Shown: one piece after another, positions 1,735 to 63,840 of the stretch | Numbering within the stretch: the stretch's first letter is position 1 | Layout: each line of letters opens with the position of its first letter | IMG/VR virus record: IMGVR_UViG_3300029238_000243 | DNA: 64,000 nt | Source: a virus | Direction: 5' to 3' (one strand) | The notes under the pieces: generated by a model | Databases searched by the model: none | Told to the model about the DNA's origin: nothing | Seen by the model: the letters and a program-made list of their open reading frames with translations, nothing else | Position numbers and translations under genes: made by a program

Positions 1735-1774
1735 AATTCATTGACGAGATTTCCAAAAAGTGAGCCTTATCATG
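1735..1774 (+). promoter_or_regulatory. Class-A conserved promoter-like box (ATTGACGAGATTTCCAAAAAGTGAGCCTTATCAT).
   Basis: It is one of 11 copies of the 35-nt motif, and it points into the 1920/2031 ORF. Confidence 0.45.
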
Positions 1775-1919
1775 AATGTGAAATACATATAGACAAGTAT
1801 TGGAACCAAGATTTCGGCAACACAATTTCAGGTATCATCATTGATACTCTTTCACATCTTTTGCCATAGTTCTGGCAACCAATCATACCAAAGATAACAA
1901 CGACAAAAACAGTATTAGT

Positions 1920-2660
1920 TTGCGAACATCCGGCACATATTTAGTTTCAGAACGAGAAAAGTTGTGTCTAAAGTTGTGCCTAAAATTACGCAAACAGGAG
2001 GAGGGAGCCAATAACTTTGGCGGAATTTTTATGACAACAATAGAGACACAATTTGAATCACATTTACAATCACAGGTTAACAGAGCAATTATCACAGGAA
2101 ATTGGGCACAGATTAGATATCTCTTGCAAAGACCTGGTATCAATGCTTCCGTCATTCAGGATGTATTTACGGATCTTGCAGATGGGATTGCAGACGCTTT
2201 TGCAGTAAACAAAGTACTCCAGAAATTATTAAGAGGTCCTGTATCATTGACACTCGGTGAATTTATCAGACTGCTTGATGCGGTCAATCCGGAATCATTG
2301 AATCCAGGTCAGTTATCCAGAAAAAAGATAAACGAGCTTTCGAAAGTTATGAATATCACTCCGTTTGCTGTCCGACTGCAGCAAAGATTAACAGAAAGCA
2401 ATACAAACGTGATCAACATCACAGCGAAGAAAAGTCCTGAAGTCTATATCACGAAGACATTAAAACCAATCCAGGATCTTTATGAACTTTATCAGTGGGC
2501 GAACATTCAGGATCCAAAATATTACGACACTGTCTTAAACGTAGACAATATGTTTGAGATATTAGGTGACAAAGAATCGGATCATACTATTGCCCTCAAC
2601 GACATGTTGGAGTCCGAATACGAACAGCAATTGAAAGAAACCGATCATTCCTGTGAATAG
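1920..2660 (+). CDS. Hypothetical protein. The real start may be the ATG at 2031.
   Basis: A long ORF with coding-like composition that follows a class-A box. Confidence 0.5.
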   Translation: MRTSGTYLVSEREKLCLKLCLKLRKQEEGANNFGGIFMTTIETQFESHLQSQVNRAIITGNWAQIRYLLQRPGINASVIQDVFTDLADGIADAFAVNKVLQKLLRGPVSLTLGEFIRLLDAVNPESLNPGQLSRKKINELSKVMNITPFAVRLQQRLTESNTNVINITAKKSPEVYITKTLKPIQDLYELYQWANIQDPKYYDTVLNVDNMFEILGDKESDHTIALNDMLESEYEQQLKETDHSCE

Positions 2661-2706
2661 CACTACATACACTTAGCACCGTAACAGAAAGAGAGGAAAA
2701 CAAATT

Positions 2707-4428
2707 ATGGGTTCAGGAGAAGCTCAGGTGTCCATGGCGGCACAAAGTATTAACACAACGATGAACGTAGCGAATACAACAGTACAAACACTTATGCAGC
2801 TTATGTTAAAAGAGCAGACAAAAATGCGAAATCCAGAAGCTTTAGTTGTAGATATTCGTGATCTCGACAAAGTATTGAACGGATTAAACGAAGCTGGTAT
2901 TCCATGGTCAACAAGCATGCAGCGTGTTCCGGTTTATGAAAGAGACACAAATGGTGACTATGTGCTAGGAAAAGATGGTAAACCAATTTTACTTGGTTTC
3001 GAAGAAACGCCAGCGAGAACACCAGATGGTATGAGTTGTATTATCATGGTCAGCGGACATGACAGACCAATGTTAGACCCTGATACGGGAGATGTTATAT
3101 TAACCAGCAAAGGAAACACAAAGATGGTCGGCGGCGATATTGATAAAGCTGTTATGATCAGAAATACGGTCCGCGAAGAACGTATGAGAGAAAACTTAGT
3201 AGGATTCAATCTTGGAAACGATGAAGTCTATCAGGGGGATTATGTAAAATTTGAGTTTCCGGGTCTGGAATCCAGATCCCGGTTTGCAGATGCATTTGGT
3301 TCTGCTTTCTCGTTAAAATGTGTGATTCCGGAAGATTTTAATGACCATTCCATTTATGTCAGACAGGACGCCTTTGAAGAAGGCTTGAATGGAGAACACT
3401 CTCCGGCTGCCAGAGCATTAAAGGAATACTATTTTAAAGAGCAGTTTCCGGAATATGCTGATTATCTGAATCGAACAGACAGAGATCTAAACACAATGAT
3501 GGAGCGTGTAAACAAAGCAGCACTTGATCCAGGTCTGATTATCAGATTTGAGAATCCATTCGAAACCGAAGAACTTTCAGCCTGTACAGAAGAGGACTTA
3601 AAAAACGATATCATCTATGTCAAAGATCAGCGTGGATATATCAATATTCCGGATATGAACGGAGATATGCCGGATCCTATTGATCTGACAACTGAAAATG
3701 GACGAAATGCTTTTGTATATTCAGCTCGTAAACTTGGTTATCTGTATTCATTTGAGGGACTGCAGCCAACAGAGGAACAGATCCATGATTTTGCAATCAG
3801 ATCTTGCCATGATAAAGAATTCCTCGCATTCCAGAACGATATTGCAAGTTTGGGTGCTTATTATGAAAACTATATTAACGACAACATCAAACTTGATTTC
3901 AAAGACGGCGACAAATCAGTGGATCCACAAAGAGGTGCGACATGGTCAAACATTGAAGTGCGGATCGATAATATGGCGCTCGTTGGTCATGTAAACATTG
4001 ATATTTCACCGACAGATCCAGATAAAGATCAAAAATCAGCAACCGCAGCAGATCTTAACGAAAAGATCAGAACTGTAAAAGAGACATCTCTGGAACAAAA
4101 TCTTACGGTTACTATTGTGGACGGCAAATCTTTATCCGCAAATCTGTATGCAAATGGTTTGGTTCGGAATTCAGATGATATTGCAATCAAGAATGAAGAT
4201 GTTATTTCTGGAACTATAAGAGGAGATCGCAGAGATGCACTCGATGCATTCCAGCAAATGTATCTCAATAACGAAGATTCAGGACACGACAGAGATATTC
4301 CTGATGAGGAACCAAATAATCAGGATATAGATATTAGCAATTCATTTCTTGATGAAACTGGAGAACCGATTCCATATGATCAGGATGACATCGATCACGA
4401 CGACGATAGTTCAACACTTCAGCTCTAA
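2707..4428 (+). CDS. Hypothetical 573-aa protein with an acidic, D-rich C-terminus.
   Basis: A long ORF with an RBS (gagaggaaaacaaattATG). Confidence 0.6.
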   Translation: MGSGEAQVSMAAQSINTTMNVANTTVQTLMQLMLKEQTKMRNPEALVVDIRDLDKVLNGLNEAGIPWSTSMQRVPVYERDTNGDYVLGKDGKPILLGFEETPARTPDGMSCIIMVSGHDRPMLDPDTGDVILTSKGNTKMVGGDIDKAVMIRNTVREERMRENLVGFNLGNDEVYQGDYVKFEFPGLESRSRFADAFGSAFSLKCVIPEDFNDHSIYVRQDAFEEGLNGEHSPAARALKEYYFKEQFPEYADYLNRTDRDLNTMMERVNKAALDPGLIIRFENPFETEELSACTEEDLKNDIIYVKDQRGYINIPDMNGDMPDPIDLTTENGRNAFVYSARKLGYLYSFEGLQPTEEQIHDFAIRSCHDKEFLAFQNDIASLGAYYENYINDNIKLDFKDGDKSVDPQRGATWSNIEVRIDNMALVGHVNIDISPTDPDKDQKSATAADLNEKIRTVKETSLEQNLTVTIVDGKSLSANLYANGLVRNSDDIAIKNEDVISGTIRGDRRDALDAFQQMYLNNEDSGHDRDIPDEEPNNQDIDISNSFLDETGEPIPYDQDDIDHDDDSSTLQL

Positions 4429-6535: not shown

Positions 6536-6599
6536 TGTATTGATCCCTCCTTTTTATAACTCAACAGTATAATGGATTCCCCCGCAGTTTGCAAGGTTT

Positions 6600-7410
6600 T
6601 TCCTGTTTGAACTAATACAATTTTCGTACACATTGTGATGTTTCATTTGTTTTGGTTTCGTTTGTTCTTTTTCCGTATGTTTTGAACTAATACGAATCAC
6701 TGAGTTTAGAAACATAAAAGAGAAGCCATAATGTTTCATAATGTTTGAATGCTATGATCGTTTCCTATTCTTTGTTTCCGCATATCAAGAACCAGTACAA
6801 AGTATGCGATTGTTTGGAAGCAGAATGCCGGAAACAGACCAGGTAACAGGTTCTGGATTTGTATTAGTTTAATTCCTATCATTTACCATTAGGGTGTTAC
6901 TTCGAACTAGTACTACGACCATGTTTATTGGTTGAATCAGCATTTGAATCAGTTCGTCAGTGTACAATGTTATGTTTATATCATTTTTGAACTAGTTCAA
7001 TGCAAATTCAATACTACTTCAATTTGACTTCAATTAAACTTCAATATAGTTCCCTCAAATCACAGGTAAAGAACTGGTTCAAGGTTTTTAATATTGTTTC
7101 TTTTCCGATTTTGAACTAGTTCAAATATAATTTGTTAATAAAAATATCTATTTTCGAATTGGTTCAGTTTAAGGGTTAACTAAACTTTAAGTCAAAGTTA
7201 TGTCACGAAACACAAGTGAAAGGCAATAGAACTAATGCAAACGGTGTCATTTTATCAAAAACAGGTAAATTGTATTAATTCAAATCGGCGTTTTGTGTAA
7301 TTTGAGATACTTTGAACGAATACAATAACAGTTTTCAGGGCATCGGTACCAGATATAACGACATCCTTATTAGTTGAGTCGAAAAATATCAGTATTGGAA
7401 CTAATACAAA
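6600..7410. repeat. Array of about 11 parS/centromere-like sites (TTGAACTAGTTCAA palindrome and half-site variants GAACTAATAC).
   Basis: Copies lie near 6607, 6684, 6861 (inverted), 6902, 6988, 7070, 7111, 7156, 7229, 7312 and 7397 in a roughly 1-kb non-coding stretch just upstream of parAB. Confidence 0.55.
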
Positions 7411-7436: not shown

Positions 7437-7476
7437 ATTTCCTGACGAGTTTTCTAAAATGTGAGCCTTGTTAGTT
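7437..7476 (+). promoter_or_regulatory. Class-A promoter-like box upstream of the sigma-factor gene.
   Basis: TTTCCTGACGAGTTTTCTAAAATGTGAGCCTTGTTAG. Confidence 0.45.
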
Positions 7477-7495: not shown

Positions 7496-7532
7496 CATAT
7501 TTGTTTGCAATATAAGTATCCATATTTAGGAT
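7496..7532 (+). promoter_or_regulatory. Class-B promoter-like box (CCATATTTAGG), placed in tandem after the class-A box.
   Basis: CATATTTAG lies 55 bp upstream of the ATG at 7582. The same decamer recurs about 18 times in the window, always oriented toward a start codon. Confidence 0.4.
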
Positions 7533-7581: not shown

Positions 7582-8610
7582 ATGAGTAAACAGCAGGTAA
7601 GCAACAAGGAATTACAAGCACAAGATACTACTGTTATGCTTGAGAAATATATAGAAGACGAATTAATCGAATCCGAAATGGATAAATGTAAAGAAGATGA
7701 TCAGTATGTATCTGAGTATGAATATGATGAGTCTGATACTTCCGTATCCAATGATGCCATGACAGATTATATGAAACAAATTGGCAACATTAAGATCATG
7801 ACTTCAGAAGAAGAGGTTGCATGTTTTAAACGATTTGAAAGCGGAGACAGAGAGGCTTACGATGAGATTTTCAACCGCAACCTGAAGCTTGTTGTCTCTA
7901 TTGCGAAGAAATATTTTTTAGTTGCAACGAATATGGATCCACTTGATGTCGTTATGGATGGTAATATCGGTTTAATGATAGCAATTCGTAGATTTGACTA
8001 CAGAAGAGGGTATAAGTTTTCAACGTATGCTTCCTGGTGGATCAAACAAACAATCACGAGAGCGATATACAATAACAATAACATGATTAGAATTCCAATA
8101 CACGCAAACGAAGGATTACACAGATACCGTAAACTTATGGAAGAATTGGCGCAATCTGGAAAGCCGGAGCCGCCGGTCAGAGAGATTGCAAAGACAATTA
8201 ATGTTACTGAAGAACAAGTTCTAATCTTTCGAAATATCGTAAACGGAATGGTGAATCCTTCTTCCTTAAACAAACTTGCAAATCAAGAAGAAGATGCTGA
8301 TACAGAGATTCAGGATTTAGTATCTTCCAATATAAACATCGAAAACGAATATATGAACCAGGATCTTAGAGAAACTTTATTTGAAATACTAGATCAATGG
8401 ATAACGAAATATCCAGGAAAAGACAAAGAAAGACAGAGACAGATCATTATAAGGCGTTTTGGTTTAGAGACAGGATCTCCAGAAACCCTGGAAATGATAG
8501 GAGCGGACTACGGCATCACAAGAGAGCGTGTTCGTCAGATTGAGTTGAAGTTCATCCGGTATGCAAGATTACCAAAAAACAAACGAGTATTAAAAGAGTA
8601 CATCGAGTAA
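7582..8610 (+). CDS. Sigma-70 family RNA polymerase sigma factor.
   Basis: It has the region 2 motif FSTYASWWIKQTITRAI and a region 4 HTH (GADYGITRERVRQIELK). Confidence 0.85.
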   Translation: MSKQQVSNKELQAQDTTVMLEKYIEDELIESEMDKCKEDDQYVSEYEYDESDTSVSNDAMTDYMKQIGNIKIMTSEEEVACFKRFESGDREAYDEIFNRNLKLVVSIAKKYFLVATNMDPLDVVMDGNIGLMIAIRRFDYRRGYKFSTYASWWIKQTITRAIYNNNNMIRIPIHANEGLHRYRKLMEELAQSGKPEPPVREIAKTINVTEEQVLIFRNIVNGMVNPSSLNKLANQEEDADTEIQDLVSSNINIENEYMNQDLRETLFEILDQWITKYPGKDKERQRQIIIRRFGLETGSPETLEMIGADYGITRERVRQIELKFIRYARLPKNKRVLKEYIE

Positions 8611-8671
8611 CTTTGTGTGTTCATATAACATATTTAAAGTAAAAGATCACACAATAAAGGAGGAACAAAAT

Positions 8672-9208
8672 ATGTTATATGTATTCATTGGTAAATCAGC
8701 TGCCGGAAAAGATTATTTGTATCATGAATTTCTAAACTCTCATCCGGATGTCAAAGAGGTTGTTTCTTATACAACAAGACCACCTCGACCAGGAGAAGTT
8801 GATGGTATTGACTATCATTTTGTATCAGAAAGAGAGTTTATGGAAATAGTTCAAAATAATCAAATTTTGGAATACCGTTCTTATAAAACAAAGATGAATG
8901 GTGTTGCTGCAATTTGGTATTATGGATCACCAAGACTGACAGATATAAATGATGTCGATTATGCTGTCGTTCTCGATCCAGACGGAGCCAGAACAGTAGT
9001 GACCGAATATGGCGCAGAAAACTGTATGGTCACATATATAACAGCTCCAGATGCATTGAGACTCGAAAGAGCAAGAAAACGAAGCGGATTTGACCAGACA
9101 GAATGGGATAGAAGATTTCCTGATGACAATGCACGATTCAACGATGAAATGGTGACCGAGTTCAAAGAGGTTCTCGGAGATCACTTTAAAGTAATCGTAA
9201 ACAACTAG
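8672..9208 (+). CDS. Guanylate-kinase-like nucleoside monophosphate kinase.
   Basis: It has the P-loop GKSAAGKD and the GMP-kinase signature TTRPPRPGEVDGIDYHFV, with the RBS aaggaggaacaaaatATG. Confidence 0.7.
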   Translation: MLYVFIGKSAAGKDYLYHEFLNSHPDVKEVVSYTTRPPRPGEVDGIDYHFVSEREFMEIVQNNQILEYRSYKTKMNGVAAIWYYGSPRLTDINDVDYAVVLDPDGARTVVTEYGAENCMVTYITAPDALRLERARKRSGFDQTEWDRRFPDDNARFNDEMVTEFKEVLGDHFKVIVNN

Positions 9209-9301
9209 TAAAAACAGAAGAGGAGAGGAAATTATGTTTCGTTTCCTCTTCTTGAATTTGAAAGGAGTTAGACAGGTTTGTTTGAAAAGGAGAAAAGCGA
9301 T

Positions 9302-10414
9302 ATGTATTTAATGCACAAAAACAAGTTTGTTGCAAAGTTAATAACCTATCAGGGCGTGATCATAGGCGTAAGCGAAGTGTATAACGAAAAACTGCTTCCG
9401 ATTGGGATGCAGGGTAGTGTAAAATTTGCAGACTGGAAAATTCTGACATGGTTAACGAATAGGATGATTCCAAGAACCAGAACAAACATTGAAGAAATCG
9501 AAGACGAGAAAACAGTGTGGGAATATCTAAAAGATAACCATGGATTGTCTATGAATGATTGTTATTGGTTCCAGGATGTGTACACAAAAGAAGTATTATC
9601 TTGGAATGATATCAATTTCAGAGATAACGGTTACTTAAGTAAACTTCGTAGTTTTCACAAAAATACTTCTGATGATCAGCATCCATCCATTTTGTCGCCG
9701 GATTATGCAACGCCTGGAGTTTTAGAAAAGTATTGGTTTCGAAAAAATGGGCGCGATTATCTGACGAAATATGGATGGATGCCAGGTGCCCCGAGCGAAT
9801 CTGTTCTGGCAGCAAATGAGGTCGCCGTTACTCAAATTGCGAATATTCTTGGAATTCCATGCGTACAGTACGAGCAATCTATCACAGACGCCGAATACAC
9901 GTGCGTAAGTGAATGTTTCAGTAAAAGAAACGAAGACATTGTAACCGGAAAGAACATAATGGATCAGTTGAATTCTTATAATCCAATCGACATTATGTCA
10001 TATGCAAATAACCTTGGCTATAAAAAAGAGATCGATCAAATGATGATCCTTGATGTTCTTGTCGGAAACCACGATAGACATCTTTCTAATCTTGCATTTG
10101 GTATGGATGCCGATACAAGAGAATTCACGAGGTTTATTCCATTGTATGATAACGGAAGTTGTCTTGGCTGGAATAGAATGCCTTATGAAGCTTTGATTAT
10201 AAAACCGCTGGATTTGCGACCTGAAGAGGCAATCGGTTTTGTGAATACATATGTTGAGCTTCCGGACATTCGTATCCTGATTAACTGTGTCCGGTATGTA
10301 TATAATAATTATCAGATTCCTGAAGAACAGACTGAAATCGCAATCCAGACACTAACAAGCGGATACAAAGTCGTATGGGATGCGATGCAGGAACTGAAGA
10401 ATAAATCCAGGTAA
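9302..10414 (+). CDS. HipA-like serine/threonine kinase-domain protein.
   Basis: It has the HipA C-terminal catalytic motifs VLVGNHDRHLSNLAF and FIPLYDNGS. Confidence 0.6.
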   Translation: MYLMHKNKFVAKLITYQGVIIGVSEVYNEKLLPIGMQGSVKFADWKILTWLTNRMIPRTRTNIEEIEDEKTVWEYLKDNHGLSMNDCYWFQDVYTKEVLSWNDINFRDNGYLSKLRSFHKNTSDDQHPSILSPDYATPGVLEKYWFRKNGRDYLTKYGWMPGAPSESVLAANEVAVTQIANILGIPCVQYEQSITDAEYTCVSECFSKRNEDIVTGKNIMDQLNSYNPIDIMSYANNLGYKKEIDQMMILDVLVGNHDRHLSNLAFGMDADTREFTRFIPLYDNGSCLGWNRMPYEALIIKPLDLRPEEAIGFVNTYVELPDIRILINCVRYVYNNYQIPEEQTEIAIQTLTSGYKVVWDAMQELKNKSR

Positions 10415-11046: not shown

Positions 11047-11164
11047 ACAATTCGTAAACAAAAAAGAGAGCAGCCGATTATTTTGGTTGCTCTTTTGTTT
11101 TCCTTTGTTTTAGGTTTACTCATATTTAAAACAAATAACAATATTTTAATCAGGAGGGATCCAA

Positions 11165-13851: not shown

Positions 13852-13890
13852 TTTCCTGACGAGTTTCTGAAATTATGAGCCTTATGATAT
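13852..13890 (+). promoter_or_regulatory. Class-A promoter-like box followed by a roughly 290-nt leader.
   Basis: ATTTCCTGACGAGTTTCTGAAATTATGAGCCTTATGAT. Confidence 0.4.
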
Positions 13891-15921: not shown

Positions 15922-16051
15922 TCAATGGATTGACAAACACTTATAGGAGTACTTGAAAACGGTACTCCTTTGTGTTGCTTTCGAAACGATTTCAACCAGT
16001 ATTAGTTTGTATCAAACTCGAACATATTTAGGCTGTAAGGAGGATTTCGAT

Positions 16052-18117: not shown

Positions 18118-18216
18118 TAGCCGATAACGAAACAACGAATGCGAGATATAGATTCCTTCAGTTGAGTCCATATTTAGGATAACAAAAATGTTACATACAA
18201 AAAGGAGGAAACAAAA

Positions 18217-19406: not shown

Positions 19407-19534
19407 ATCGTTTCTGATCTCCTCTCTGTGTGTTTATTGTTTCTGTTCTAAATATGGGTTGAGAGAATGCATACCATTTGTCTGCAAACAAGATAACCAT
19501 ATTTAGTGATAGAACGTGAAAGAGAGGTATTTTT

Positions 19535-21060: not shown

Positions 21061-21100
21061 TCTCCTGACGAGTTTTTCAGATTGTGAGCCTTGTAATAGA
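21058..21100 (+). promoter_or_regulatory. Class-A promoter-like box.
   Basis: CTCCTGACGAGTTTTTCAGATTGTGAGCCTTGTAAT, 45 bp upstream of the ATG at 21143. Confidence 0.45.
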
Positions 21101-21142: not shown

Positions 21143-21577
21143 ATGCATATTATATTGTTTTTATTGATCATGATAATAACTGTGTCTGTAATCTTCATTC
21201 CAATAATCCATAAATCGGTTACAGCTGATCTCGCTGCGATCGAAGCAATGGCTTTAAATGACGAGACAATGCACCCAGATATTGACGTAGCTCCCGGACT
21301 CAAAACAGAAATCTTAATCGTTGTATATGCAGTCTTGGCATTATGTCCAAGTATTTTTCTTATGGGACTATACCCTAGATTCCGGCAGCCAGTATCAGTA
21401 GAGACAGTTCCGGTATCATATGAGTCCGGAGAACAGATACCGAAAAATGTGACCGTTATTGTAGACGAAGAGAATTCAACACATTTTGAGACGATTACAT
21501 ACAAATTTGGCTTTTTGTATGAAAAGGAAACGTCATTGCACGTAAATCTCTCTGATAATATCAGCGACGCACGATAG
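21143..21577 (+). CDS. Membrane protein.
   Basis: It has two TM helices and the RBS aaaggaattaaaaccATG. Confidence 0.55.
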   Translation: MHIILFLLIMIITVSVIFIPIIHKSVTADLAAIEAMALNDETMHPDIDVAPGLKTEILIVVYAVLALCPSIFLMGLYPRFRQPVSVETVPVSYESGEQIPKNVTVIVDEENSTHFETITYKFGFLYEKETSLHVNLSDNISDAR

Positions 21578-21733
21578 AAACAGTAGAGTCGGAACCGAAT
21601 GTTTTAGAGCCGATTATTTTACAAAAACACAACTCTTTCCGAGTGAATGGGCTCCGAAAAGAGCTGTTCCGAAAGTGAAAAGCAATTCCATATTTACGAC
21701 AACAAATTGTGAAAGAGAAAAGGAGATTATATT

Positions 21734-22775: not shown

Positions 22776-22863
22776 ATTCAATTCCTCCTTTAATATGCGA
22801 TTAGTGGTTATTCTAAATATGTGCTCGAACCGTATTACGAAACAAATTTGATTTTTTTTGCAA

Positions 22864-22901
22864 TTTCCTGACGAGGTTTTCAAAAAGTGAGCCTTATCAT
22901 G
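22864..22901 (+). promoter_or_regulatory. Class-A promoter-like box.
   Basis: TTTCCTGACGAGGTTTTCAAAAAGTGAGCCTTATCAT, 45 bp upstream of the SPFH gene. Confidence 0.45.
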
Positions 22902-22945: not shown

Positions 22946-23902
22946 ATGTTTTTATTCGTGCTAGGCATTATTGCAACTATAGTATTATTCTTCGTTTTGG
23001 GTATTGAACTTACAGACGAAGCAGTAGAGATGCATTTTAGAAAGAGACAGTTTCTTGCTGTATTCGGACTTATACTCTGTGGTTTCGGATGTGTCCGAAC
23101 CGTACCGACTGGATATACCGGAATTTTAACTACATTCGGACGAGTCGAATCGCAGACATTAGATGCAGGTATAGCTTTTGTAGAGCCTTGGCAAAAGGTT
23201 GTAAAAATGGATAACCGTGTACAAAAAGCACAAGTAGATATGACCTGCTTCTCAAAAGATATTCAGGAAGTAACACTTACATACACCGTCAACTATCAGA
23301 TTAGCCAGCAGAATGCACAGGATATTTATCGTACAATCGGTTCTAACTACTATGACACAGTTATTGTTCCACGTGTACAGGAAGCAGTGAAAGCCGGATT
23401 TGCAAAATACACTGCAAATGAATTGATTGAAGACCGTAATAAGGTTGCTGCTTTAATTCAAACCGATTTGATTGATGATCTTGCAAGTTATAACATTAGA
23501 TTAACTGCAACCGCAATCGAAAATATCGATTTTAGTGACGAATTCACAAGCGCAGCAGAAGCGAAAGTAACAGCAGTCCAGAACAAATTAACAGCAAAGA
23601 CAGAGCAGGAAAGATTAAACCTGGAAGCAGAAGCAGAAGCAAAACGAAAAGTAACAGCAGCTCAAGCAGAAGCCGATTCTGCAATCGTAGCAGCAAAAGC
23701 TGATGCAGAGGTAGCACAGATCCAGGCAGATTCCGCTGAGTATCAGGGCAAAAAGGATGCAGCTATCATGTCATCTGTTGGTTCACAGTTAGATGCACAT
23801 CCACAGTTGATCCAGTACTACTATGTCAAAGGATGGAATGGCAAACTGCCAGAGACAATGCTAAGCGACAAGATCAATACATTGTTCCAGTTAAGCCAGT
23901 AA
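22946..23902 (+). CDS. SPFH/band-7 (HflK/C-prohibitin-like) membrane protein.
   Basis: It has an N-terminal TM helix, an SPFH-like core (GYTGILTTFGRVESQTLDAGIAFVEPWQKV...) and an Ala/Glu coiled-coil tail. Confidence 0.8.
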   Translation: MFLFVLGIIATIVLFFVLGIELTDEAVEMHFRKRQFLAVFGLILCGFGCVRTVPTGYTGILTTFGRVESQTLDAGIAFVEPWQKVVKMDNRVQKAQVDMTCFSKDIQEVTLTYTVNYQISQQNAQDIYRTIGSNYYDTVIVPRVQEAVKAGFAKYTANELIEDRNKVAALIQTDLIDDLASYNIRLTATAIENIDFSDEFTSAAEAKVTAVQNKLTAKTEQERLNLEAEAEAKRKVTAAQAEADSAIVAAKADAEVAQIQADSAEYQGKKDAAIMSSVGSQLDAHPQLIQYYYVKGWNGKLPETMLSDKINTLFQLSQ

Positions 23903-24761: not shown

Positions 24762-24798
24762 ATTTCCTGACGAGTTTTCGATATATTGAGCCTTATTG
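24762..24798 (+). promoter_or_regulatory. Class-A promoter-like box.
   Basis: ATTTCCTGACGAGTTTTCGATATATTGAGCCTTATTGT. Confidence 0.45.
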
Positions 24799-24830
24799 TT
24801 AACAAGTAAAAACGAAGGGAGAATACATAT

Positions 24831-25659: not shown

Positions 25660-25698
25660 TTTCCTGACGAGTTTTCCAGATTGTGAGCCTTATTATCA
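25660..25698 (+). promoter_or_regulatory. Class-A promoter-like box.
   Basis: TTCCTGACGAGTTTTCCAGATTGTGAGCCTTATTAT. Confidence 0.45.
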
Positions 25699-28360: not shown

Positions 28361-28388
28361 GTTTAGAAATAACTCTTTGCGGTTCCAA

Positions 28389-39367: not shown

Positions 39368-39407
39368 TATGAAAAGCTCCTTTGTCTTCGAATTATTTGT
39401 TTACATA

Positions 39408-39446: not shown

Positions 39447-39480
39447 GCCATTTTTTCGTATTCGTTTTATAATATCTAGT

Positions 39481-42083: not shown

Positions 42084-42226
42084 AGTACCTCAGATTAAAT
42101 ATGGACGAGAACGAAACAAGGGAATTCGCAACGAATGATATTGAAAAATGTTCATTTGTCTCGATAACAAAGAGCACATATTTAGTATGAAACCACTAAT
42201 CATATATGTATGAAAGGAGCTTACAT

Positions 42227-43763: not shown

Positions 43764-43995
43764 AATACCTTTCCTTTCTCTGAATGCGTTCCATCTTCTG
43801 ACGTCTGTTATCAGTACGTGCCGGTTTTCCACCTGGTTTCTTCTTGTATGTTTTGCAGGTCTGACACTGATGACGAAATGTACCGTCTTTTCCAAGATCA
43901 CAGTTTAATACATTGAATTTCTCTAGTTTTTGCCATAATTCGTTTCCTCCTTGAATTGTATATAAATTGTTTCGTATTAAATATGGTTCGAGAGA

Positions 43996-44045
43996 GACGA
44001 AACAAAAAAAAAGAACCACCTACCGCAACAGGCAAGTGGTTATGA
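43996..44045. terminator. Bidirectional terminator hairpin (AACCACCTACCGCAACAGGCAAGTGGTT).
   Basis: It has the same architecture as the hairpin at 22238. Confidence 0.45.
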
Positions 44046-44900: not shown

Positions 44901-44996
44901 TTATGTGTTCTTGATACTGACTCCTATTATAAAGGAAGAAAAATGAAAGGGCAATAAGAAAAGGAGTCCGAAATAAATCGAACTCCAAGTTTGATA

Positions 44997-45964: not shown

Positions 45965-46165
45965 TAACTCTTTCCCTATCCCTTTCTTGGATGTGTGTTG
46001 TTAGGTTACATATACTAAATATGGGTGGCAGAGATACAAAGGAACGAAAATTTACGAAAATAAGTAAAAGTGATGAAAGGCTGGTAATCTCTTTATACTG
46101 GAAGGCAATAAGAAAAGGAGTCCGAAATAAATCGAACTCCTTTTTGAAATCTATTGTTTCTAACA

Positions 46166-49729: not shown

Positions 49730-50040
49730 AATATTTCATTTCCTTTCTTTGTATTTGTTTGTGTTTTTCACATAATACTAAATATGGGTTACAAAGATAC
49801 AAAGGAAGCGATTTATAGGGAAACAAAGTATAGAAAACGAAAAAGAGCCTACCATATTGGTAAGCTCTCTTTCGTAACAAATAAACACACTTGGAGATTA
49901 TGGATTTCTCTCATTATCTCCATATACAAGGAAACAATCCTGCCAACGAATTTGGCATTTTTGAACCCGTCAACAATTAATTTGGAAACCGGTTTCGCTT
50001 CCGTAGAGTCTGTATACTCCTGTGTGCTCTTCAGCATTTC

Positions 50041-51975
50041 TTATGACTGATAGAGTTCTGTTTCGTAATACTCTCCTTGAAGCACACCATTATAGTACAA
50101 CTTCAAAAGTATTATATCATATGTTTCCCCATAAATGTCAAGTGTTTCTCCAGACGGTTCCAAAGTAAATGCATATCCGCTGTCTGTGAAATTCGAATAG
50201 GAACTGTCTGCTTTCTTCAGATAATAGATCTTGTCACCATAATTGAAGACTTCCAGAGAACCTATTGATCCGCCATTTATGTTTCCGCACCAGCCTTCTA
50301 CTCCGCCGTCTTCCGTAAACATGCTTAATGATATTGTCTGTCCATCATTGCTTGAGTAAGAACCCGGTGTATTCCAGAAATTGCCGGTTGGTGTATAGTT
50401 CGGAACCGGGATATTTCCGCTCTGATCAACAGTCTCCTCTTCTGCTTGTACTTCTGTTCCCTCCGGAGCCGTTTCTGTCGGTTCTTCAGTTGTTTCTTCC
50501 ACTACTTCTTCGGTTTCTGTTTCCGGAATTGATTCTGTTACAGTGATATGGGATGCATATATGGCATTCATCTCTGCTTCCCCATTTGTAACCCAATCAT
50601 TGTATGCGTCGTCAGCACCAGAGAAAATAATGTCATCTTCTGTAATGCAGTACCATTCATCAAAACTATAACCGTCAGAATTGATCATCTTGTTTATATC
50701 TTTAAATTGAGTATGTTCGTCTTCATCATAGACAAGCTCATAATCCGATTCCTCAGAATACATAAAAGTAGAATCAGCCAACACAACGTCTATATTCATA
50801 TCTGGATCTTCAATGTATTTATTATATTTTTCAGATTCAGGAACACGATTGAGCATGTAACCACCACCATCTGTCTCATAAGTAAAATATATACGTCCTT
50901 TATATTCTCCGAAATACCACTTTTTATCATTATCTTTTTTCATTTCTGAGAATCCTATATTATTTGATTCACACTGGAATAAAACTCCTCCATGTTCCAC
51001 ATCATCAATCTCATTTATATATAATTTAAGCGGATATTTATATTCACGAATACTAATATATTTTACACCGTATCTATGATCTACATTATATTTAGCCCAT
51101 TGAGGTAATTCCTCTTTCTGCTCCTGCATATGCACAATCGCTGCTGCTCCACCTCCGACAACAAGCGTTCCGGCGACAATGCCTGCGATCACCTTTGTTG
51201 CGATTCCCTTTCCGGCGCCTGCTGCTACTGTGGCTGCGGTTGTTCCGGCAACGGTACTTCCGGTTCCTGCTGCGGCTGTAACTGCTTTAGTTGCCGAAGA
51301 CACTGCAGCCGACATTGCCGGAATCTGTGTCGTCTGTGCCGCTTTAACATCCTCTTTAAGCAGCAACAGGAAGAATGGAATCGGAGCAAGACCATAAAGC
51401 TTGGTCCCCTTCTTTTCAAGATCTAATACTTTGTCCTTGATCTTTTGTCTGCCATAATTCAGGCGGCTCTTAACGGTATTCTCTGATACTTCAAGCACGG
51501 ACGCCATTTCTTTTACAGACATCTGCTCCATATAGAACATTGTGACACAGATGCGCTGTTCATCTGTCAAAGTATCAATGATCTCTTTCATCAGTCTCGT
51601 TGTCTCATTCTGGTCCATAACGATTTCCGGCTGAACAGACACACGGTCATCCACAAAGGTATCACTGATATCCTGTCCGTCTTCGGTTTCTGTTTCTGAA
51701 AACAAGGTTACCTTTCTCCGTTTTAACTCGTTTTTGGAAAGGTTCGACACAATCGTTCCGATCCAGGACTGAAACTTCTCCGGATCTTCCAAGGTATCCA
51801 GAGACTTAAAAGCCTTCACATAGGCATCCTGAACGATATCCTGAGCTGTGTGCTCGCTGTTTAAAAACTTCCTCGCCAGGTAAAAACATTTCGTATACGT
51901 TTTCTCATACAGGTACGTATACGCTTCCTGATCTCCTTTCATTGCTTTTTGTACTGCTTCAGTATAGCTATTCAT
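50041..51975 (-). CDS. ECF-type sigma factor fused to a TM segment and a roughly 380-aa extracytoplasmic C-terminal domain.
   Basis: It has ECF region 2 (DIVQDAYVKAFKSLDTL..FQSWIGTIVSN) and region 4 (LTDEQRICVTMFYMEQMSVKEMASVLEVSENTVKSRL), followed by a hydrophobic Ala/Gly-rich stretch and a long C-terminal domain. Confidence 0.75.
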   Translation of the reverse strand: MNSYTEAVQKAMKGDQEAYTYLYEKTYTKCFYLARKFLNSEHTAQDIVQDAYVKAFKSLDTLEDPEKFQSWIGTIVSNLSKNELKRRKVTLFSETETEDGQDISDTFVDDRVSVQPEIVMDQNETTRLMKEIIDTLTDEQRICVTMFYMEQMSVKEMASVLEVSENTVKSRLNYGRQKIKDKVLDLEKKGTKLYGLAPIPFFLLLLKEDVKAAQTTQIPAMSAAVSSATKAVTAAAGTGSTVAGTTAATVAAGAGKGIATKVIAGIVAGTLVVGGGAAAIVHMQEQKEELPQWAKYNVDHRYGVKYISIREYKYPLKLYINEIDDVEHGGVLFQCESNNIGFSEMKKDNDKKWYFGEYKGRIYFTYETDGGGYMLNRVPESEKYNKYIEDPDMNIDVVLADSTFMYSEESDYELVYDEDEHTQFKDINKMINSDGYSFDEWYCITEDDIIFSGADDAYNDWVTNGEAEMNAIYASHITVTESIPETETEEVVEETTEEPTETAPEGTEVQAEEETVDQSGNIPVPNYTPTGNFWNTPGSYSSNDGQTISLSMFTEDGGVEGWCGNINGGSIGSLEVFNYGDKIYYLKKADSSYSNFTDSGYAFTLEPSGETLDIYGETYDIILLKLYYNGVLQGEYYETELYQS

Positions 51976-52127
51976 TTTTCATCCTCCGTAATATGTACTC
52001 TAATATCTTTCTCACTTTCGTTTTGTTTACTGTATATCCGTTCTGGTCTTGTTGTGCCAGTTCCTGAAACCATAACATTTCCCGGCATGGTTCCTCATGA
52101 ATGATTTCCTCTCTGCGTTCATCCATG
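51975..52127 (-). CDS. Small ORF of about 50 aa immediately upstream of, and overlapping, the ECF-fusion start.
   Basis: It has the RBS aaaggagggattgcATG, and its stop overlaps the ATG at 51975. Confidence 0.3.
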
Positions 52128-52368
52128 CAATCCCTCCTTTCTGTCCGTCTACTTAAAAGACAGTAGAAAACAGGAATCGGTTTTAGGTTTTCTTCAACAA
52201 TTCAACATTTTATAACTGTTCGCTGTTTTGCACAAGCCTGTTTTCGTATATTCATGCATTTTTGTATATATTGCCGGATGATTCGTTTCCGGCATTCGTG
52301 TGCACTGAAACACATATTTAAAGTATTGAACAAAAATATATGCACACAAAAGGAGGAAACAAAAGAAA

Positions 52369-52988
52369 TGAATCAGAGAGGTTTCAGTTTAAAGAAATGT
52401 ATGGTAGGACTTGTATTGGCAATCGCAATGGTTATCCAAACACCAGTATCAGGATTTGCAGCAGATGTTTGTACGCAGAGTAACGTTGTCCAGGCAGAAG
52501 GAAAAGTTTCGAAGACCAGAGTCAACAATGTAAATGCGTACTATTTAGGAATTCCGGAGAATGTAAGACAATATCTGGAGGACCGAGGTTGGACATTCAT
52601 CTGCTCAGATCAGAGTTTTGGTAAACGATATGGGTATACAGGATCGATTCTCGCTTTAACACTTTATAACGACAAGGTTATCTATATTGATAATCGAAAG
52701 AAAGCAGAGCCCTCAATCGTACACGAAGTCGGGCATGCTATTGATTATTCCTACGGGTTTACCTCAAATTCGCAGGCGTTTAATGATATATTCGCTGTAG
52801 AACATAATAATGTAAGCTCATTTTGGAAAACGCATCATAATAACACGGACACAGCTATCGAATATTTTGCTGAAGCGTTCCAGATCTATGTGCAGCAGCC
52901 AGAAAATTTACAGACTTACTGTCCGCAGACCTACGAGTATATTCAAAATATTGTTTCCGGACTTAGACCTGAAACAACCGAAAATTAA
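52369..52988 (+). CDS. Secreted zinc metallopeptidase of the anthrax-lethal-factor / PPEP-like (M34-like) type.
   Basis: It has a signal peptide, an HEVGHAID (HExxH) motif and a downstream EYFAEAF motif (third-ligand Glu). Confidence 0.6.
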
Positions 52989-54857: not shown

Positions 54858-55047
54858 GATTCTTTTCCTCCTTCTTGAAAAATCTCTGGTTTTCTACTCA
54901 TCTAACTAAATATGTGCTCTAAGAACGTGCTATTAACGGCTTGTTTTTGTTCCGTTCATCCGGTTCCGTATATTTTGGATTTTCTTTTTGAACACAAAGA
55001 AAGCGGAACCGATCATCTCGGAACCGCAATCTTCGTCTTCCATAATT

Positions 55048-57685: not shown

Positions 57686-57722
57686 TGACAAAGAGAACGG
57701 CTGCTAGAAAAACCAGCAGCCG
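57686..57722. terminator. Perfect hairpin terminator (CGGCTGCT-AGAAAAACC-AGCAGCCG).
   Basis: The hairpin is visible in the sequence. Confidence 0.55.
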
Positions 57723-58022
57723 AATATGAATGGATACCATGCTCTTTCGAACATTACACAATCAGAACACGAAAACCATATTAGGTCTTCACATTCTGTC
57801 CTCATTTCACAAGAATTCTGATGGCAGGTCAAAAGACCAGCATCAATTGTTTTTATAGAAGTATTCCATTTCGTAATCTCTATTCGCTGATATGAACTGG
57901 TATTACACTGCAATTCTGCAATGTAAGAAAATACAATTAGCAGTTGTATGGATTTACCCAATAGAAGTATCCAGTTTCTTTGTGCGATTATTTTAATCCC
58001 CTCTACATAGTTAAATATGTGC
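57690..58022 (-). ncRNA. Candidate non-coding unit 2, about 300 nt, running from the class-B box at 58011 to the terminator at 57700.
   Basis: It has no credible ORF and contains two copies of the repeat ATAGAAGTATyCnnTTyGTAAT (at 57847 and 57960). Confidence 0.35.
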
Positions 58023-58059
58023 GGGCGATTTACAAAGTAATACGTTTTCTTGTAAACAA

Positions 58060-58362
58060 AAAGAGAAAAGCTGCCGTAACGAACAGCAGCCATAGTTTTG
58101 TGAACAGGTAAGATACCCATAAAGGGTATTATCACATACATGAGTAAATGAAAGTTACTAGCTTTCATTACTCAAACCTTCAGTTATGTAATAGAAGTAT
58201 CCTGTTCGTAATTCTCTTTGCGCATTGTGAACTGATAGGAAACACATATGTGTTTCAAATTTCTGGATTTGACATACTCAAAAATAGAAGAATAGAAGTA
58301 TTCAGTTCGTATTGCGCATGATGTCTCCATTCATCATTTTGCTTACGTATTAAATATGGTAC
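58060..58362 (-). ncRNA. Candidate non-coding unit 1, about 280 nt, running from the class-B box at 58350 to the terminator hairpin at 58060-58098.
   Basis: It contains two repeat copies (58187 and 58300). A class-A box at 58427 lies upstream in tandem. Confidence 0.35.
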
Positions 58363-58426
58363 GCATACTTGCAAACTAAAACGAGTTTTCTCTGATGAAC
58401 GACGGCTATTGTTGTTTACGAATATT

Positions 58427-58462
58427 ACAAGGCTCACTTTTTGGAAAACTCGTCAGGAAAAT
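58427..58462 (-). promoter_or_regulatory. Class-A promoter-like box.
   Basis: Its reverse complement is TTTCCTGACGAGTTTTCCAAAAAGTGAGCCTTGTAAT. Confidence 0.45.
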
Positions 58463-61398: not shown

Positions 61399-61708
61399 TT
61401 ATTCGTTTCCTTTCCGTCATGTTTTTTCTGACGGTTTAAATATGTGCGAGTAAAAAACAAAGAAATACGATTTGAAAACGAAGCAATTCTACCGGTAAAC
61501 ACAGCAAGTCTGTTTAATATTTTTAGATCCATGGGTGTTTCATCCGGATCATCATCTTCGTACGGATCATCATCTTCGTACGAACTATCATTTTCGTACG
61601 AACGAGAACGGCGACGATGGCCATTTGATGTCATAACACGGTTCGATGTTGTTAAAGAACTCATTAAAAGTGGCGGCATCGGCATCATGATTAGCAGTTT
61701 CCTCCTTA

Positions 61709-61972: not shown

Positions 61973-62200
61973 CTAACTGATCTGCACGCCAGTAGGCGGC
62001 AGGTTTCAGTACAGGAGGACGTCACTTAAGGTTTGAAACACCAGGACATCGGGATCTTCATTGAAGTTTCCTGGTGTCTTTTTTATGGTATTCAAAGCTG
62101 TCTGTTGTAATCTCTCCGTTGCAGAAACGTTCAAGACATCCCTACAGGGTAGGTTTCACAGGACTTTCGTCCTGCAGTCTTACGGTCTCAGCTGGAACCG
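61973..62200 (-). ncRNA. Putative omega RNA (TnpB guide-RNA scaffold) downstream of the tnpB 3' end.
   Basis: A conserved structured region lies between the tnpB stop and the right end of the element. It is duplicated in the mini-element. Confidence 0.45.
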
Positions 62201-62278
62201 TTTAAAATGTATATGTAAAATAGAAACTGTAGTTTTGTTCTATGTGTGTATATAAAAAGTTATTGTTCCATGTATGTG

Positions 62279-63766
62279 TTACGCAGCTCTTTTGAGTCCA
62301 AAACTGGAAGGGATATGTTTTACGGACCGTAAGATCTCGGTAATACACTGGTCATGCATATTTTTAAACTGAGGATAGTTCTGAAGGCATTTATCACGGT
62401 CTGTGTGTTCCAAAGTATCATCGGAATTCATGAGGAGAAAAGCACTGTAGAGATCACGCTGTACCCATTCTCCGTTTATGGTGTTGTGACGTCTGGAAAG
62501 TTTCTTTCTCCAGTACGTATCACTGGTATGGTCATACTGGCTTGCTTTAAACGTCCAGGTATTGACTTCGTGGTAGGTTCCTCCGGTGTAACCAAGCTTT
62601 CTCTTCAATATGGTAAGAAACTGGGATGGAGCTCTGGTCCCGATGGATTTTCCGAAGCGTTTCTTCCGTTTATATTTCCCTTTCTTATTCTTTTCCGTCT
62701 TTTTGGACCGTTTCTGTAATCCCTTGAAATTCATGTCCTCAACATAAACCTCATTGCCTTCTTCCAATAACAGGTTCGCATAGGCTTCCTGCCATTGTCT
62801 CAATGTGTCGGAACGTTTTCTCTGCATCGCACTGAGTTCGTTACGGATCTTTTTGTACCGGTTGCTGTAGTTCCAGGTTTTCCTTCCCTTCTTTATGGTA
62901 CCGTCCGCATTGTAATTGTCCGGATTGGATGCCCGTCTGGATCGTTCCAGTTTTCGCTGCATCTTCCGGATCTTTTTATCCTGTACTTCAATCCCTTTCC
63001 CAAGTTCTGTGAGATGACATTTTGTATCACTCACTGTAGCAACAGTGGAAGTACCAATATCAATACCGACCCTTCCGGTACCCACTGCATGTCTTAACGG
63101 CGGTGTCCCTTCCTGTACCAATTGTACGTAGTATCTCCATCCGGTACTGAACTTCTTTCTTACAATTCTGCAGTATTTTGTTCTGTCATTTAAAGCAGAA
63201 GTCTCGTAATACCAATGATCCGTGTTTTGATTTCCTGGTAATATCACATCCAGTGTCAGACCACGGTTCTGTCTCTTTGGGGATGCATTGATGTATACTT
63301 TTCCGTCTTTGTAGATGATCCCTGTTGTATTCTTTTTGCCTTCGAAACTTAAGAATTCATCCCATTTCTTGTAATGGATCTGTTTCCCGGTGGAATACAA
63401 TACTTTTTCCACACCTTTCCATACCGAGTCACTGATCTTCTGATAAACTGCAGAATGTACGTATTTTAAGTTACATCTCAGTTTTGTGGCGGATTTCTGG
63501 AGGTCGTATTGTGTGAGCCCGTAAGATTTTACAATAACAGATAACTGTTTTGACAGGGCTACCTTCTCTGGACCTTTCTCAAGTGCCACATACTGCTTTA
63601 AGAGATCCGTATAAGTTTTATCCCGTTTCAGTAATGTGATCTGCCGGATCGCAAAACGACGGATTGTATTACCGATCTTCGCTACTTCTCGGAAATAGTT
63701 TTCCAGGTAACGCTGGTCGGAATATTTCTTTGTATTCAGTTTTAACTCCAGCGTGTAAGTAGGCAT
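62279..63766 (-). CDS. tnpB: TnpB-like RuvC-fold nuclease (IS605 OrfB family).
   Basis: It has RuvC-I (VGIDIGTSTV), RuvC-II (EVYVEDMNFKG) and a C-terminal RDLYSAFLL (RuvC-III-like) motif. The true start is MPTYTLELKL, with the RBS ggaggaaaacgatcATG. Confidence 0.75.
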   Translation of the reverse strand: MPTYTLELKLNTKKYSDQRYLENYFREVAKIGNTIRRFAIRQITLLKRDKTYTDLLKQYVALEKGPEKVALSKQLSVIVKSYGLTQYDLQKSATKLRCNLKYVHSAVYQKISDSVWKGVEKVLYSTGKQIHYKKWDEFLSFEGKKNTTGIIYKDGKVYINASPKRQNRGLTLDVILPGNQNTDHWYYETSALNDRTKYCRIVRKKFSTGWRYYVQLVQEGTPPLRHAVGTGRVGIDIGTSTVATVSDTKCHLTELGKGIEVQDKKIRKMQRKLERSRRASNPDNYNADGTIKKGRKTWNYSNRYKKIRNELSAMQRKRSDTLRQWQEAYANLLLEEGNEVYVEDMNFKGLQKRSKKTEKNKKGKYKRKKRFGKSIGTRAPSQFLTILKRKLGYTGGTYHEVNTWTFKASQYDHTSDTYWRKKLSRRHNTINGEWVQRDLYSAFLLMNSDDTLEHTDRDKCLQNYPQFKNMHDQCITEILRSVKHIPSSFGLKRAA

Positions 63767-63803
63767 GATCGTTTTCCTCCATTTTAGTTTCTTAGCTATA
63801 TAC

Positions 63804-63840
63804 ATCATAAGGCTCACTTTTCGGAAACCTCGTCACATTT
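63804..63840 (-). promoter_or_regulatory. Class-A promoter-like box about 45 bp upstream of tnpB, inside the IS.
   Basis: Its reverse complement is AAATGTGACGAGGTTTCCGAAAAGTGAGCCTTATGAT. Confidence 0.45.

Follow-up and report, generated by a model that had tools for sequence, protein, structure and literature searches.

Two candidate promoter classes and a primary-like sigma factor encoded on a large plasmid of the human gut

The IMG/VR record IMGVR_UViG_3300029238_000243 is filed as viral, and we analyzed a 64-kb stretch of it (hereafter the window), which by its gene content is part of a large plasmid of at least 135 kb rather than of a phage. Two families of short intergenic boxes, here called class A and class B, recur along the window, and a gene for a sigma-70-family factor lies at 7582-8610 on the plus strand. 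On a gene map that is itself approximate, class A, class B or both precede 33 of the ~42 transcription units with an upstream gap of at least 60 bp, in keeping with the initial annotation of this DNA, which had most units marked by such motifs.

The core of class A, TGACGAG-N12-TGAGCCTT followed by TATnAT, occurs 11 times without a mismatch, compared to 0.61 ± 0.84 copies in shuffled sequences, and a search of the whole window allowing up to two mismatches returned no further copy. All 11 sites are intergenic and oriented toward the next gene or non-coding unit, and they correspond to the 11 sites listed earlier, with shifts of 0-8 nt. On the plus strand (box coordinates, followed by the T of TGACGAG as single reference position), these are 1737-1773 (T 1742; AATTCAT-TGACGAG-N12-TGAGCC-T-TATCAT), in tandem with a class B site at 1936 and before gene 2031-2660; 7438-7474 (T 7443), before the sigma gene and in tandem with a class B site at 7521; 13852-13888 (T 13857), with a 324-nt leader and then the operon starting at 14181; 21061-21097 (T 21066), before 21143-21577; 22864-22900 (T 22869), before an SPFH/Band_7 gene (22946-23902); 24763-24799 (T 24768) and 25660-25696 (T 25665), each before a membrane-protein paralogue (24831-25559 and 25732-26439, respectively); and 28315-28351 (T 28320), which heads a non-coding unit that is a tnpB-less copy of the flanks of a TnpB-like gene. 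The minus-strand boxes are 39407-39443 (T 39438), before 39367-39086 and back to back with a canonical recombinase promoter; 58424-58460 (T 58455), in tandem with a class B site at 58358 and heading a non-coding unit; and 63804-63840 (T 63835), before the TnpB-like gene (ATG at 63766). That a start codon always follows within 30-100 bp, as had been stated, holds for six sites (63-77 nt from box start to ATG), and the rest have leaders of 139-500 nt, an intervening class B site or no open reading frame.

We compiled 41 non-redundant class A sites, drawn from related contigs as well as the window; in this set, TGACGA(G/A) and TGAGCCT are constant and the 11-12-nt spacer between them is free to vary. 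Numbered from the T of TGACGAG as 0, the box consists of TTTCC at -5 to -1 (close family only), TGACGAR at 0-6, a spacer that is T-rich and then A-rich, (G/T)TGAGCC at 18-24, a T, and TATnAT at 26-31 (T 100%, A 71%, T 100%, n, A 77%, T 71%), with a conserved TA-A-A at 35-40, the position expected of a start site. In variants reading TGAGCC-TATTAAT the hexamer is displaced by one base, which suggests that TATnAT is a separate -10 module, and that register puts GTGAGCC roughly between -20 and -14 and TGACGAR roughly between -38 and -32. The distance from the TGAC core to TATnAT is 20-21 bp, so the misfit with a standard 17-bp spacing pointed out previously is real: the 17-bp position upstream of the -10 is occupied by CGAGKT, and there is no -35 element at 16-18 bp. 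The long spacer is not of the MerR type, in which 19-20 bp between -35 and -10 hold a dyad operator, as its T-tract/A-tract quasi-palindrome is seen only in the close family and is lost in the relative L037. A hammerhead or other RNA motif was considered for the ribozyme-like CTGACGAG and rejected, with nothing at Rfam gathering thresholds and 0 pairs predicted by RNAalifold for 22 diverse class A sites.

The core of class B is the octamer CATATTTA, present in 29 copies on the two strands compared to 4.84 ± 2.17 in shuffles. Twenty-five of these are intergenic, co-oriented with the gene that follows, and placed 20-60 nt before a Shine-Dalgarno (SD) sequence and start codon (median 47 nt from octamer C to ATG, with SD starts peaking at +30 to +39). 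They include every one of the 18 sites already reported, together with seven additional ones (1936+, 8629+, 11121+, 16023+, 21689+, 37933- and 42103-), and the four remaining octamers (10641-, 35814-, 45176+ and 46212-) are coding or on the wrong strand, which is approximately the number expected by chance. With 4 of 29 class B octamers misplaced and 11 of 11 class A boxes intergenic, the motifs are thus not equally common inside genes in the opposite orientation.

The gene-facing class B octamers on the plus strand are found at 1936-1943 (new; in tandem with the class A box at 1742), 7521-7528 (61 nt before the sigma ATG), 8629-8636 (new; before a guanylate-kinase-like gene), 11121-11128 (new; before a UvrD helicase gene and directly 3' of a strong terminator), 16023-16030 (new; before a 538-aa gene whose SD starts 14 nt after the octamer C, which bounds the transcription start site), 18169-18176 (before 18217), 19498-19505 (before 19535), 21689-21696 (new; before 21734), 26610-26617 (before 26661, a paralogue of two class-A-headed genes), 27470-27477 (before 27520), 28140-28147 (3' of a terminator and upstream of the class A box at 28320), 35792-35799 (before 35840, OGFr_N-like), 42177-42184 (before a Bro-N gene at 42227) and 52313-52320 (before an anthrax-lethal-factor-like, or ATLF-like, gene at 52368). 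Those on the minus strand are at 19449-19456 (before 19406), 22814-22821 (before 22781), 37926-37933 (new; before an SSB-like gene at 37874), 42096-42103 (new; before a PIF1-like helicase gene), 43978-43985 (before 43901), 46016-46023 (before a leucine-rich repeat (LRR) gene, ATG ~45955), 49779-49786 (before a 1187-aa BspA-LRR gene), 54907-54914 (before 54857), 58012-58019 (heading a second non-coding unit), 58351-58358 (tandem partner of the class A box at 58455) and 61437-61444 (before 61397). The A-to-B tandems noted before at the sigma gene (7443/7521) and at the first non-coding unit (58455/58358) are both present, and a third lies at 1742/1936.

With the octamer C taken as 0, class B sites show TT at -21/-20 (66-67%), TTTG at -17 to -14 (41-54%), C at -2 and C/A at -1, then the octamer at 0-7 and an A-rich (G/A)GATAACAAA. 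A TTG located 13 nt upstream of the octamer is facultative (14 of 25 window sites), and TTG-anchored sites in 1.2 Mb of related DNA comprise 31 non-redundant perfect octamers vs. a single one with one mismatch. This all-or-none octamer, below a TT/TTTG signal conserved at 41-67%, resembles the -10-only organization of T4 late promoters. When the two classes are aligned on a common downstream ATAACAA and on TAT, both carry an invariant C at -14, where an extended -10 (TGn) would have its G, and neither has a -35 at the canonical spacing of 16-18 bp, except for class B if its -10 is placed after the octamer. Such a placement (TAGGAT) agrees with the TTG spacing, but conflicts with the SD of the conserved 538-aa gene at +14. 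As for the expected A at -11 and T at -7, CATATT has both, TATTTA has A at -7, and TAnnnT has the T in ~50% of cases.

A strict terminator search placed hairpins directly upstream of only 4 of 25 class B and 1 of 11 class A sites, hence the T-rich upstream signal does not simply reflect terminator tails. Several class B sites lie 18-28 nt 3' of strong intrinsic-terminator hairpins (11064-11128, 28100-28147, 35750-35799 and 43985-44030), and at these the terminator T-tail merges into the TTnCTTTG upstream element to form compact terminator-promoter junctions. Overall, both classes are intergenic and co-oriented, stand at a fixed distance from SD and ATG, and combine invariant boxes with a lack of RNA structure; they behave like promoter classes, as had been proposed, and are very probably transcription initiation signals.

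The sigma gene encodes a 342-aa protein (hereafter sigmaP) with Pfam domains Sigma70_r1_2, r2, r3 and r4, and its earlier assignment to the sigma-70 family thus extends to regions 1.2, 2, 3 and 4. Region 1.1 is lacking (no PF03979 match in sigmaP or in the proteins P0001-P0005), whereas chromosomal RpoD matches have it. The best solved relative is Bacillus subtilis SigA (7ckq_F, E=1e-54); alignments with SigA structures run end to end, identity to RpoD/SigA is ~40%, and comparison with 7ckq_F, 7l7b_F and 8x6f_E shows that the housekeeping DNA-contact residues are kept (Q/T in region 2.4, H/E in region 3.0, R-E-x-x-R-Q in region 4.2). By its sequence, sigmaP is primary-like (group 1/2). It belongs to an uncharacterised clade which is carried by plasmid-like contigs in the case of the window, P0002, P0003, P0005 and P0034, and which also takes in P0004 and P0043 by protein sequence alone. 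The traits of this clade are insertions of two residues in region 2.1-2.2 and of 6-11 residues before region 4.1, the replacement of DPVRMY by D-x-M-(T/S)-x-Y in region 1.2 (DAMTDY in sigmaP), and, at the start of region 3.0, an N-rich segment (YNNNNM in sigmaP) instead of the near-universal ADQART. Holoenzyme-promoter structures place region 1.2 next to the non-template strand immediately downstream of the -10, and region 3.0 next to the duplex immediately upstream of the -10. The altered segments of sigmaP would presumably be positioned at DNA near -4 to -6 and -13 to -17, and the unusual invariant bases of classes A and B coincide with the contacts expected of regions 1.2 and 3.0. Contigs of 134,470, 135,186 (Ga0495776_073148) and 379,253 bp encode a sigma identical to sigmaP. 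A PLSDB Subdoligranulum record with a full-length match to the sigma was set aside, being a 60%-GC chromosomal fragment that carries rpoB. A guanylate-kinase-like gene comes next after the sigma gene in the window and in two syntenic relatives (L035 and L037), a conserved pairing, and in the window (7582-10414) it is followed by a HipA-like kinase gene.

The boxes and the sigma have been retained together among relatives. Two short syntenic contigs, L035 (sigma 59% identical) and L037 (56%), keep the A-to-B tandem upstream of the sigma gene along with TGACGAR, TGAGCCTTAT and the octamer, while spacers and flanks have diverged (in L037, the first box reads TGACGAA at 3 of 3 sites). The more distant L249, which comes from other metagenomes and has a GC content of 32% and a sigma 39% identical to sigmaP, displays the same parB-parA / sigma / UvrD order; ~11 of its genes, including those for sigma, UvrD, PhoH and Band_7, carry (C/A)CCATATTTA, and at its sigma gene B is preceded, at a distance of 74 nt, by an A-like core, CCCTTATATAT. 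The tandem arrangement at the sigma gene is hence kept in relatives whose sigmas are 39-59% identical. In L038 (sigma 42% identical), whose products include an actin-like segregation protein besides Mob_Pre and ParAB, the recJ, mob, sigma and ALP genes, among others, are preceded by a related composite, TTCATATT-nn-TTATAT-AACAAA. In every examined lineage of the sigma clade, most genes have the octamer or a close variant upstream, and class A and the sigma were found in the same five IMG/VR uncultivated viral genomes (UViGs). By contrast, neither A nor B was seen at IMG/VR loci of other primary-like sigmas (30-40% identity). The exact 17-mer CATATTTAGGATAACAA occurs in more than 120 IMG/VR stretches, at up to 10 copies per 11-13 kb, and nearly all of these belong to the same plasmid family. 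A scan of GTDB (185,579 genomes) for the class A pattern gave two matches, likely by chance, and therefore names no host. A profile search of IMG/VR for the sigma clade was discarded, as the patterns were too generic and returned hundreds of unrelated primary-like sigmas. In a single metagenome (3300045988; L073, L054, L016 and other loci), we also observed arrays of small genes, many of them for DUF7666 and pentapeptide-repeat proteins, with an exact CATATTTAGGATAACAA before each gene, i.e., one per 0.5-1.1 kb.

Genuine canonical promoters exist on the same DNA, at a small number of places. These are TTGCAA-17-TATACT at 6566-6594 (minus, parA-parB), TTGCAC-17-TATAAT at 32641-32669 (plus, beside the iteron origin), TTGCCA-17-TATAAT at 39445-39473 (plus, tyrosine recombinase gene 39481-40533) and TTGCCC-17-TATAAT at 44926-44954 (minus, before 44900), to which the rep operon adds an extended -10 of the TGnTAGAAT type. 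The parA promoter is canonical in L038 and L249 as well. In the first 20 kb, the part that was scanned, sigma-70-like matches stand at chance level (66 vs. 60 ± 8). The recombinase promoter is perfect and ends 7 nt before the ATG, so that this gene appears to be leaderless, and it is back to back with the minus-strand class A box. Maintenance genes (parAB, the tyrosine recombinase gene and the iteron-side genes) thus look host sigma-A-driven, and the presence of canonical promoters at par, rep-side and recombinase genes points to A and B being signals of another type.

The nature of the element is indicated by its maintenance functions. ParA and ParB are encoded in the window, and the 1-kb gap between parA and the sigma gene is filled, at 6590-7410, by ~10 copies of a GAACTAATACAA-like 12-14-mer, partly arranged as inverted pairs (e.g., TTGAACTAGTTCAA), which is probably a parS centromere array. 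A Rep/DnaD-like initiator adjoins eight tandem ~35-bp repeats (CATTTGGTACCGTATTTTTCGATAAA...) at 32394-32696, between a divergent Rep-side operon (31773-32393 and 30624-31754, minus) and gene 32697; from their layout, these are iterons of a plasmid origin with canonical promoters on the flanks. Relatives carry a Mob_Pre relaxase, and terminase matches among the loci fetched by the 17-mer scan are confined to two unrelated contigs, each with a single chance 17-mer. The combination of ParAB and centromere repeats, Rep and iterons, Mob_Pre in relatives, and terminase only in unrelated contigs leads us to place the element in a family of large, uncultured, mobilisable plasmids of the human gut. 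A phage had been considered, given that NrdD, ThyA and PhoH are present in loci fetched with the 17-mer, and was rejected on the distribution of terminase, the window covering 64 kb of at least 135 kb. The suggestion of the initial annotation that the motifs form a temporal promoter class is not supported, as the element is a plasmid rather than an inducible phage-like element and no evidence of a temporal cascade was found. Many fragments of this plasmid family are filed as viral in IMG/VR, and some of its contigs bear 7000000xxx identifiers, which we take to refer to Human Microbiome Project samples. The window also encodes a tyrosine recombinase, RecJ, UvrD, PIF1-like, SSB-like and TnpB-like proteins, very large LRR proteins of the BspA type and an extracytoplasmic function (ECF) sigma fusion. 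Plasmids of Lachnospira and Clostridioides encode proteins weakly related to the Rep-like protein, and Firmicutes SigA structures are the closest to the sigma, so that the host probably belongs to the Clostridia. When 20 kb were compared by megablast with collections of phages and plasmids, no match was obtained.

Collectively, these data suggest that the plasmid runs a partly private transcription system. We consider it an even call that A and B are two plasmid-specific promoter classes, with class B read by sigmaP and the reader of class A uncertain, and we lean slightly toward sigmaP as the best candidate reader of class B, because its altered regions 1.2 and 3.0 would face the unusual invariant bases of A and B and because class B co-distributes with the sigma clade. 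The latter strengthens, for class B, the link to the encoded sigma that the initial annotation had raised. SigmaP would then direct the host core RNA polymerase to class B, an invariant 8-9-bp element, (C/A)C-CATATTTA, which would hold or abut the -10 region, with the upstream TTG being facultative. For class A, sigmaP could act again, in another geometry or together with a further factor, or host sigma-A could act with a plasmid-encoded activator. The A-to-B tandem at the sigma gene would provide priming or regulation together with positive feedback, by analogy with sigN on the B. subtilis plasmid pBS32 (see below). A and B together would drive ~33 of the ~42 units in the window, with maintenance genes relying on host sigma-A promoters (TTGnnn-17-TATAAT) and nearly all other genes on A or B. 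It is tempting to go further, if only tentatively and with some doubt, and to suppose that a mobile-element clade of primary-like sigmas gives gut plasmids a private transcription code, made of an invariant, -35-less, -10-type nonamer CCATATTTA and a second, bipartite class, with only replication, partition and resolution genes under host control. Under such a code, the nonamer would have remained unchanged as the sigma diverged to 39% identity, and the sigma, alone or with a partner, would read class A, where a TGAC box 20-21 bp from the -10 would be unusable by the housekeeping holoenzyme.

Several observations weigh against assigning the boxes to sigmaP, and they bear on the alternative that host sigma-A reads both classes, with the boxes (TGACGAR, GTGAGCC and CCATATT) binding plasmid global regulators, either activators that replace the -35 or repressors, comparable to the KorA/KorB operators of IncP plasmids or the MotA boxes of T4 middle promoters. 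The plasmid sigma would then serve elsewhere, e.g., in competition for core or in reading canonical promoters. With its housekeeping-type contact residues (regions 2.4, 3.0 H/E and 4.2), sigmaP could indeed simply read TTGACA/TATAAT-type promoters. Region 2.4 of the L249 sigma is heavily altered (WWIKQTITR to RWIQNRIQR), yet the same octamer is used on its plasmid, and a motif that stays identical where the sigma is down to 39% identity is easier to reconcile with recognition by a conserved host protein than by a plasmid sigma that evolves quickly. A single sigma for two unrelated-looking motif classes is unparsimonious, and if both promoters of the sigma gene needed sigmaP, expression could not start in a new host, a bootstrapping problem that host sigma-A would solve. 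Uncertainty in the -10 register adds to this: the would-be -11 of class A is A in only 71% of non-redundant sites, and class B offers CATATT, TATTTA and a following TAnnnT, of which the last alone fits the TTG spacing (16 bp), whereas the SD at +14 of the conserved 538-aa gene leaves room for a start site only with CATATT or TATTTA. In favor of sigma-A, a TA-initial hexamer is present in each class: TATnAT in A and, in B, the TAnnnT that follows the octamer and that has a TTG at a 16-bp spacing before it in 14 of 25 window sites. Yet class A has neither a -35 at 16-18 bp nor a TG extended -10, half of the class B sites have no TTG, and the canonical promoters on the plasmid are quite different and confined to maintenance genes. 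Neither box is palindromic or an obvious direct repeat, unlike most operators, no candidate regulator was identified, and the motifs co-distribute with the sigma clade. Reading by host sigma-A is hence possible, but on the whole unlikely.

Other readers appear improbable to various degrees. The octamer CATATTTA resembles the -10 consensuses of sporulation sigmas (sigma-K CATAnnnTA, sigma-E CATAcAnT, sigma-G CATnnTA), and a host alternative sigma with a CATA-initial -10, such as sigmas E, K and G of Clostridia, might read class B and place the cargo in a developmental compartment or state. Conservation of the motif across divergent plasmids would be expected of such a host factor, and the weak similarity of the Rep-like protein to Lachnospira and Clostridioides plasmid proteins would be compatible with it, but the register does not fit (TA at positions 7-8 rather than 6-7 or 8-9), the matching -35s (AC, ATA, GnATR) are absent and replaced by TTnCTTTG, and it would be odd for a replication helicase, SSB, UvrD and the sigma gene to be sporulation-specific; we regard this reading as improbable. 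Still less probable is that the boxes are not promoters at all, and instead represent transcribed leader or processing signals, recombination or transposon ends, or co-duplicated flanks. Two class A copies (28320 and 63835) do sit in a 104-nt duplicated segment (75% identity) tied to the TnpB-like element, and many class B copies in relatives precede tandem paralogous genes; the other nine class A copies, however, share just the 35-50-nt box. The boxes are also invariant where spacers vary, including in distant relatives, show no RNA structure, covariation or Rfam family, and head unrelated genes while always pointing at them. In addition, three tandem paralogous membrane-protein genes (34-46% identical) are headed by A, A and B, respectively, indicating that the boxes are modules and not simply co-duplicated flanks. 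The ECF sigma fusion, named in the initial annotation as a second candidate reader, has a complete ECF sigma domain and shares the 135-kb contig with the primary-like sigma. Typical ECF promoters combine an AAC-containing -35 with a CGT-containing -10 at a distance of ~16 bp, and neither motif has these hallmarks. Moreover, tblastn over 1.2 Mb of related loci, in which A and B sites occur by the dozen, found no homologue of the fusion; none was found in the five sigma-carrying IMG/VR relatives either, and the short syntenic relatives in which A and B are retained lack the fusion. ECF sigmas usually control their own genes, but neither motif stands upstream of this one, so that its reading A or B is hardly credible.

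Sigma factors with private promoters are known from other mobile elements. T4 late promoters (TATAAATA) are read by gp55, a truncated sigma acting with gp33 and the sliding clamp as co-factors, and T4 middle promoters join a MotA box to a sigma-70 -10 through AsiA/MotA appropriation. Class B is similar to the former in its invariant 8-bp AT-rich element in the -10 region and the absence of an obligatory -35, and class A to the latter in having a normal-looking -10 with an invariant upstream box in place of the -35. Unlike T4, however, the element here is a plasmid and no evidence of temporal order was seen, and no relatives of gp55, AsiA or MotA were noticed among the proteins scanned, the window being 64 kb of at least 135 kb. 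In phage SPO1, a cascade of small, divergent sigmas (gp28 and gp33/34) recognizes -35/-10 pairs with the consensuses AGGAGA-N17-TTTnTTT and CGTTAGA-N18-GATATT. Here too, an element-encoded sigma would redirect the host core polymerase to element-specific promoters marking whole gene classes, but the motifs are unrelated, and the plasmid has one conserved primary-like sigma for two motif classes. With Firmicutes sigma-A/TGn promoters, the boxes share a TA-initial hexamer properly placed relative to SD and ATG, and a sigma with matching recognition residues is at hand; they differ in the 20-21 bp (not 17 ± 1) between TGAC and the -10 in class A, in having their invariant parts outside the classical hexamers, and in the invariant C at -14 of both classes if the -10 is TATnAT or TATTTA. 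The nearest parallel on a plasmid is SigN (ZpdN) of pBS32 in B. subtilis, whose gene has two SigA-dependent promoters and one SigN-dependent promoter and whose regulon is plasmid-restricted (PMC6751061). SigN is described as having weak homology to sigma factors and as possibly forming a novel subclass of alternative sigmas (PMC6751061). It recognizes a TTTACG...GATATAAT-like consensus and drives a damage-induced killing programme. In both systems a sigma is encoded on a large plasmid (low-copy in the case of pBS32), promoters are essentially confined to the plasmid, and the multiple sigN promoters match the A-to-B tandem. The system proposed here differs in its primary-like sigma, its motifs and its coverage of most of the plasmid, including replication and repair genes. 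We regard it as a known kind of system, a mobile-element sigma with private promoters, which is unusual in that the sigma is primary-like, most of the plasmid is covered and both consensuses are undescribed as far as we found, a literature search for the literal motifs having returned nothing relevant.

If the assignment to sigmaP is correct, this would constitute a natural orthogonal sigma-promoter system on a human-gut Firmicutes plasmid, covering most genes and going beyond a small stress regulon. It would bear on how the expression of large plasmids is insulated from the host, on establishment after transfer and on how far a housekeeping-type sigma can be re-tuned, and the two short invariant boxes, together with the sigma that matches them, would lend themselves directly to use as parts for orthogonal expression. 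Fragments of this plasmid family, which IMG/VR currently files as viral, can also be recognized cheaply in metagenomes by the sequence of the motifs.

The ECF sigma fusion itself (50041-51975, minus; 644 aa, with Pfam ECF domains) is preceded by a 46-codon open reading frame, adjoins a 206-aa ATLF-domain protein and lies upstream of the giant BspA-LRR proteins, and 50041-52988 may be a cargo module with its own regulation. Among the non-coding units, that of the TnpB-like gene is found within 61973-63902, where the gene (62279-63766, minus; OrfB_IS605) is followed by a ~230-nt non-coding stretch (62200-61973). A second, tnpB-less copy at 28245-28700 has kept the upstream flank (75% identical), class A box included, together with the 3' stretch (75-98% identical), and looks like a stand-alone omega-RNA-like unit with a class A promoter. 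Rfam gave nothing relevant, and at E<=0.1 only a sub-threshold mmgR/suhB match at 58054-58134 (29 bits, E=0.057). This match falls in 57690-58460 (minus), which comprises two consecutive non-coding units, the first headed by A and B and the second by B; each ends in a terminator-like hairpin, and GGATACTTCTAT occurs four times across the two, at intervals of 110-130 nt.

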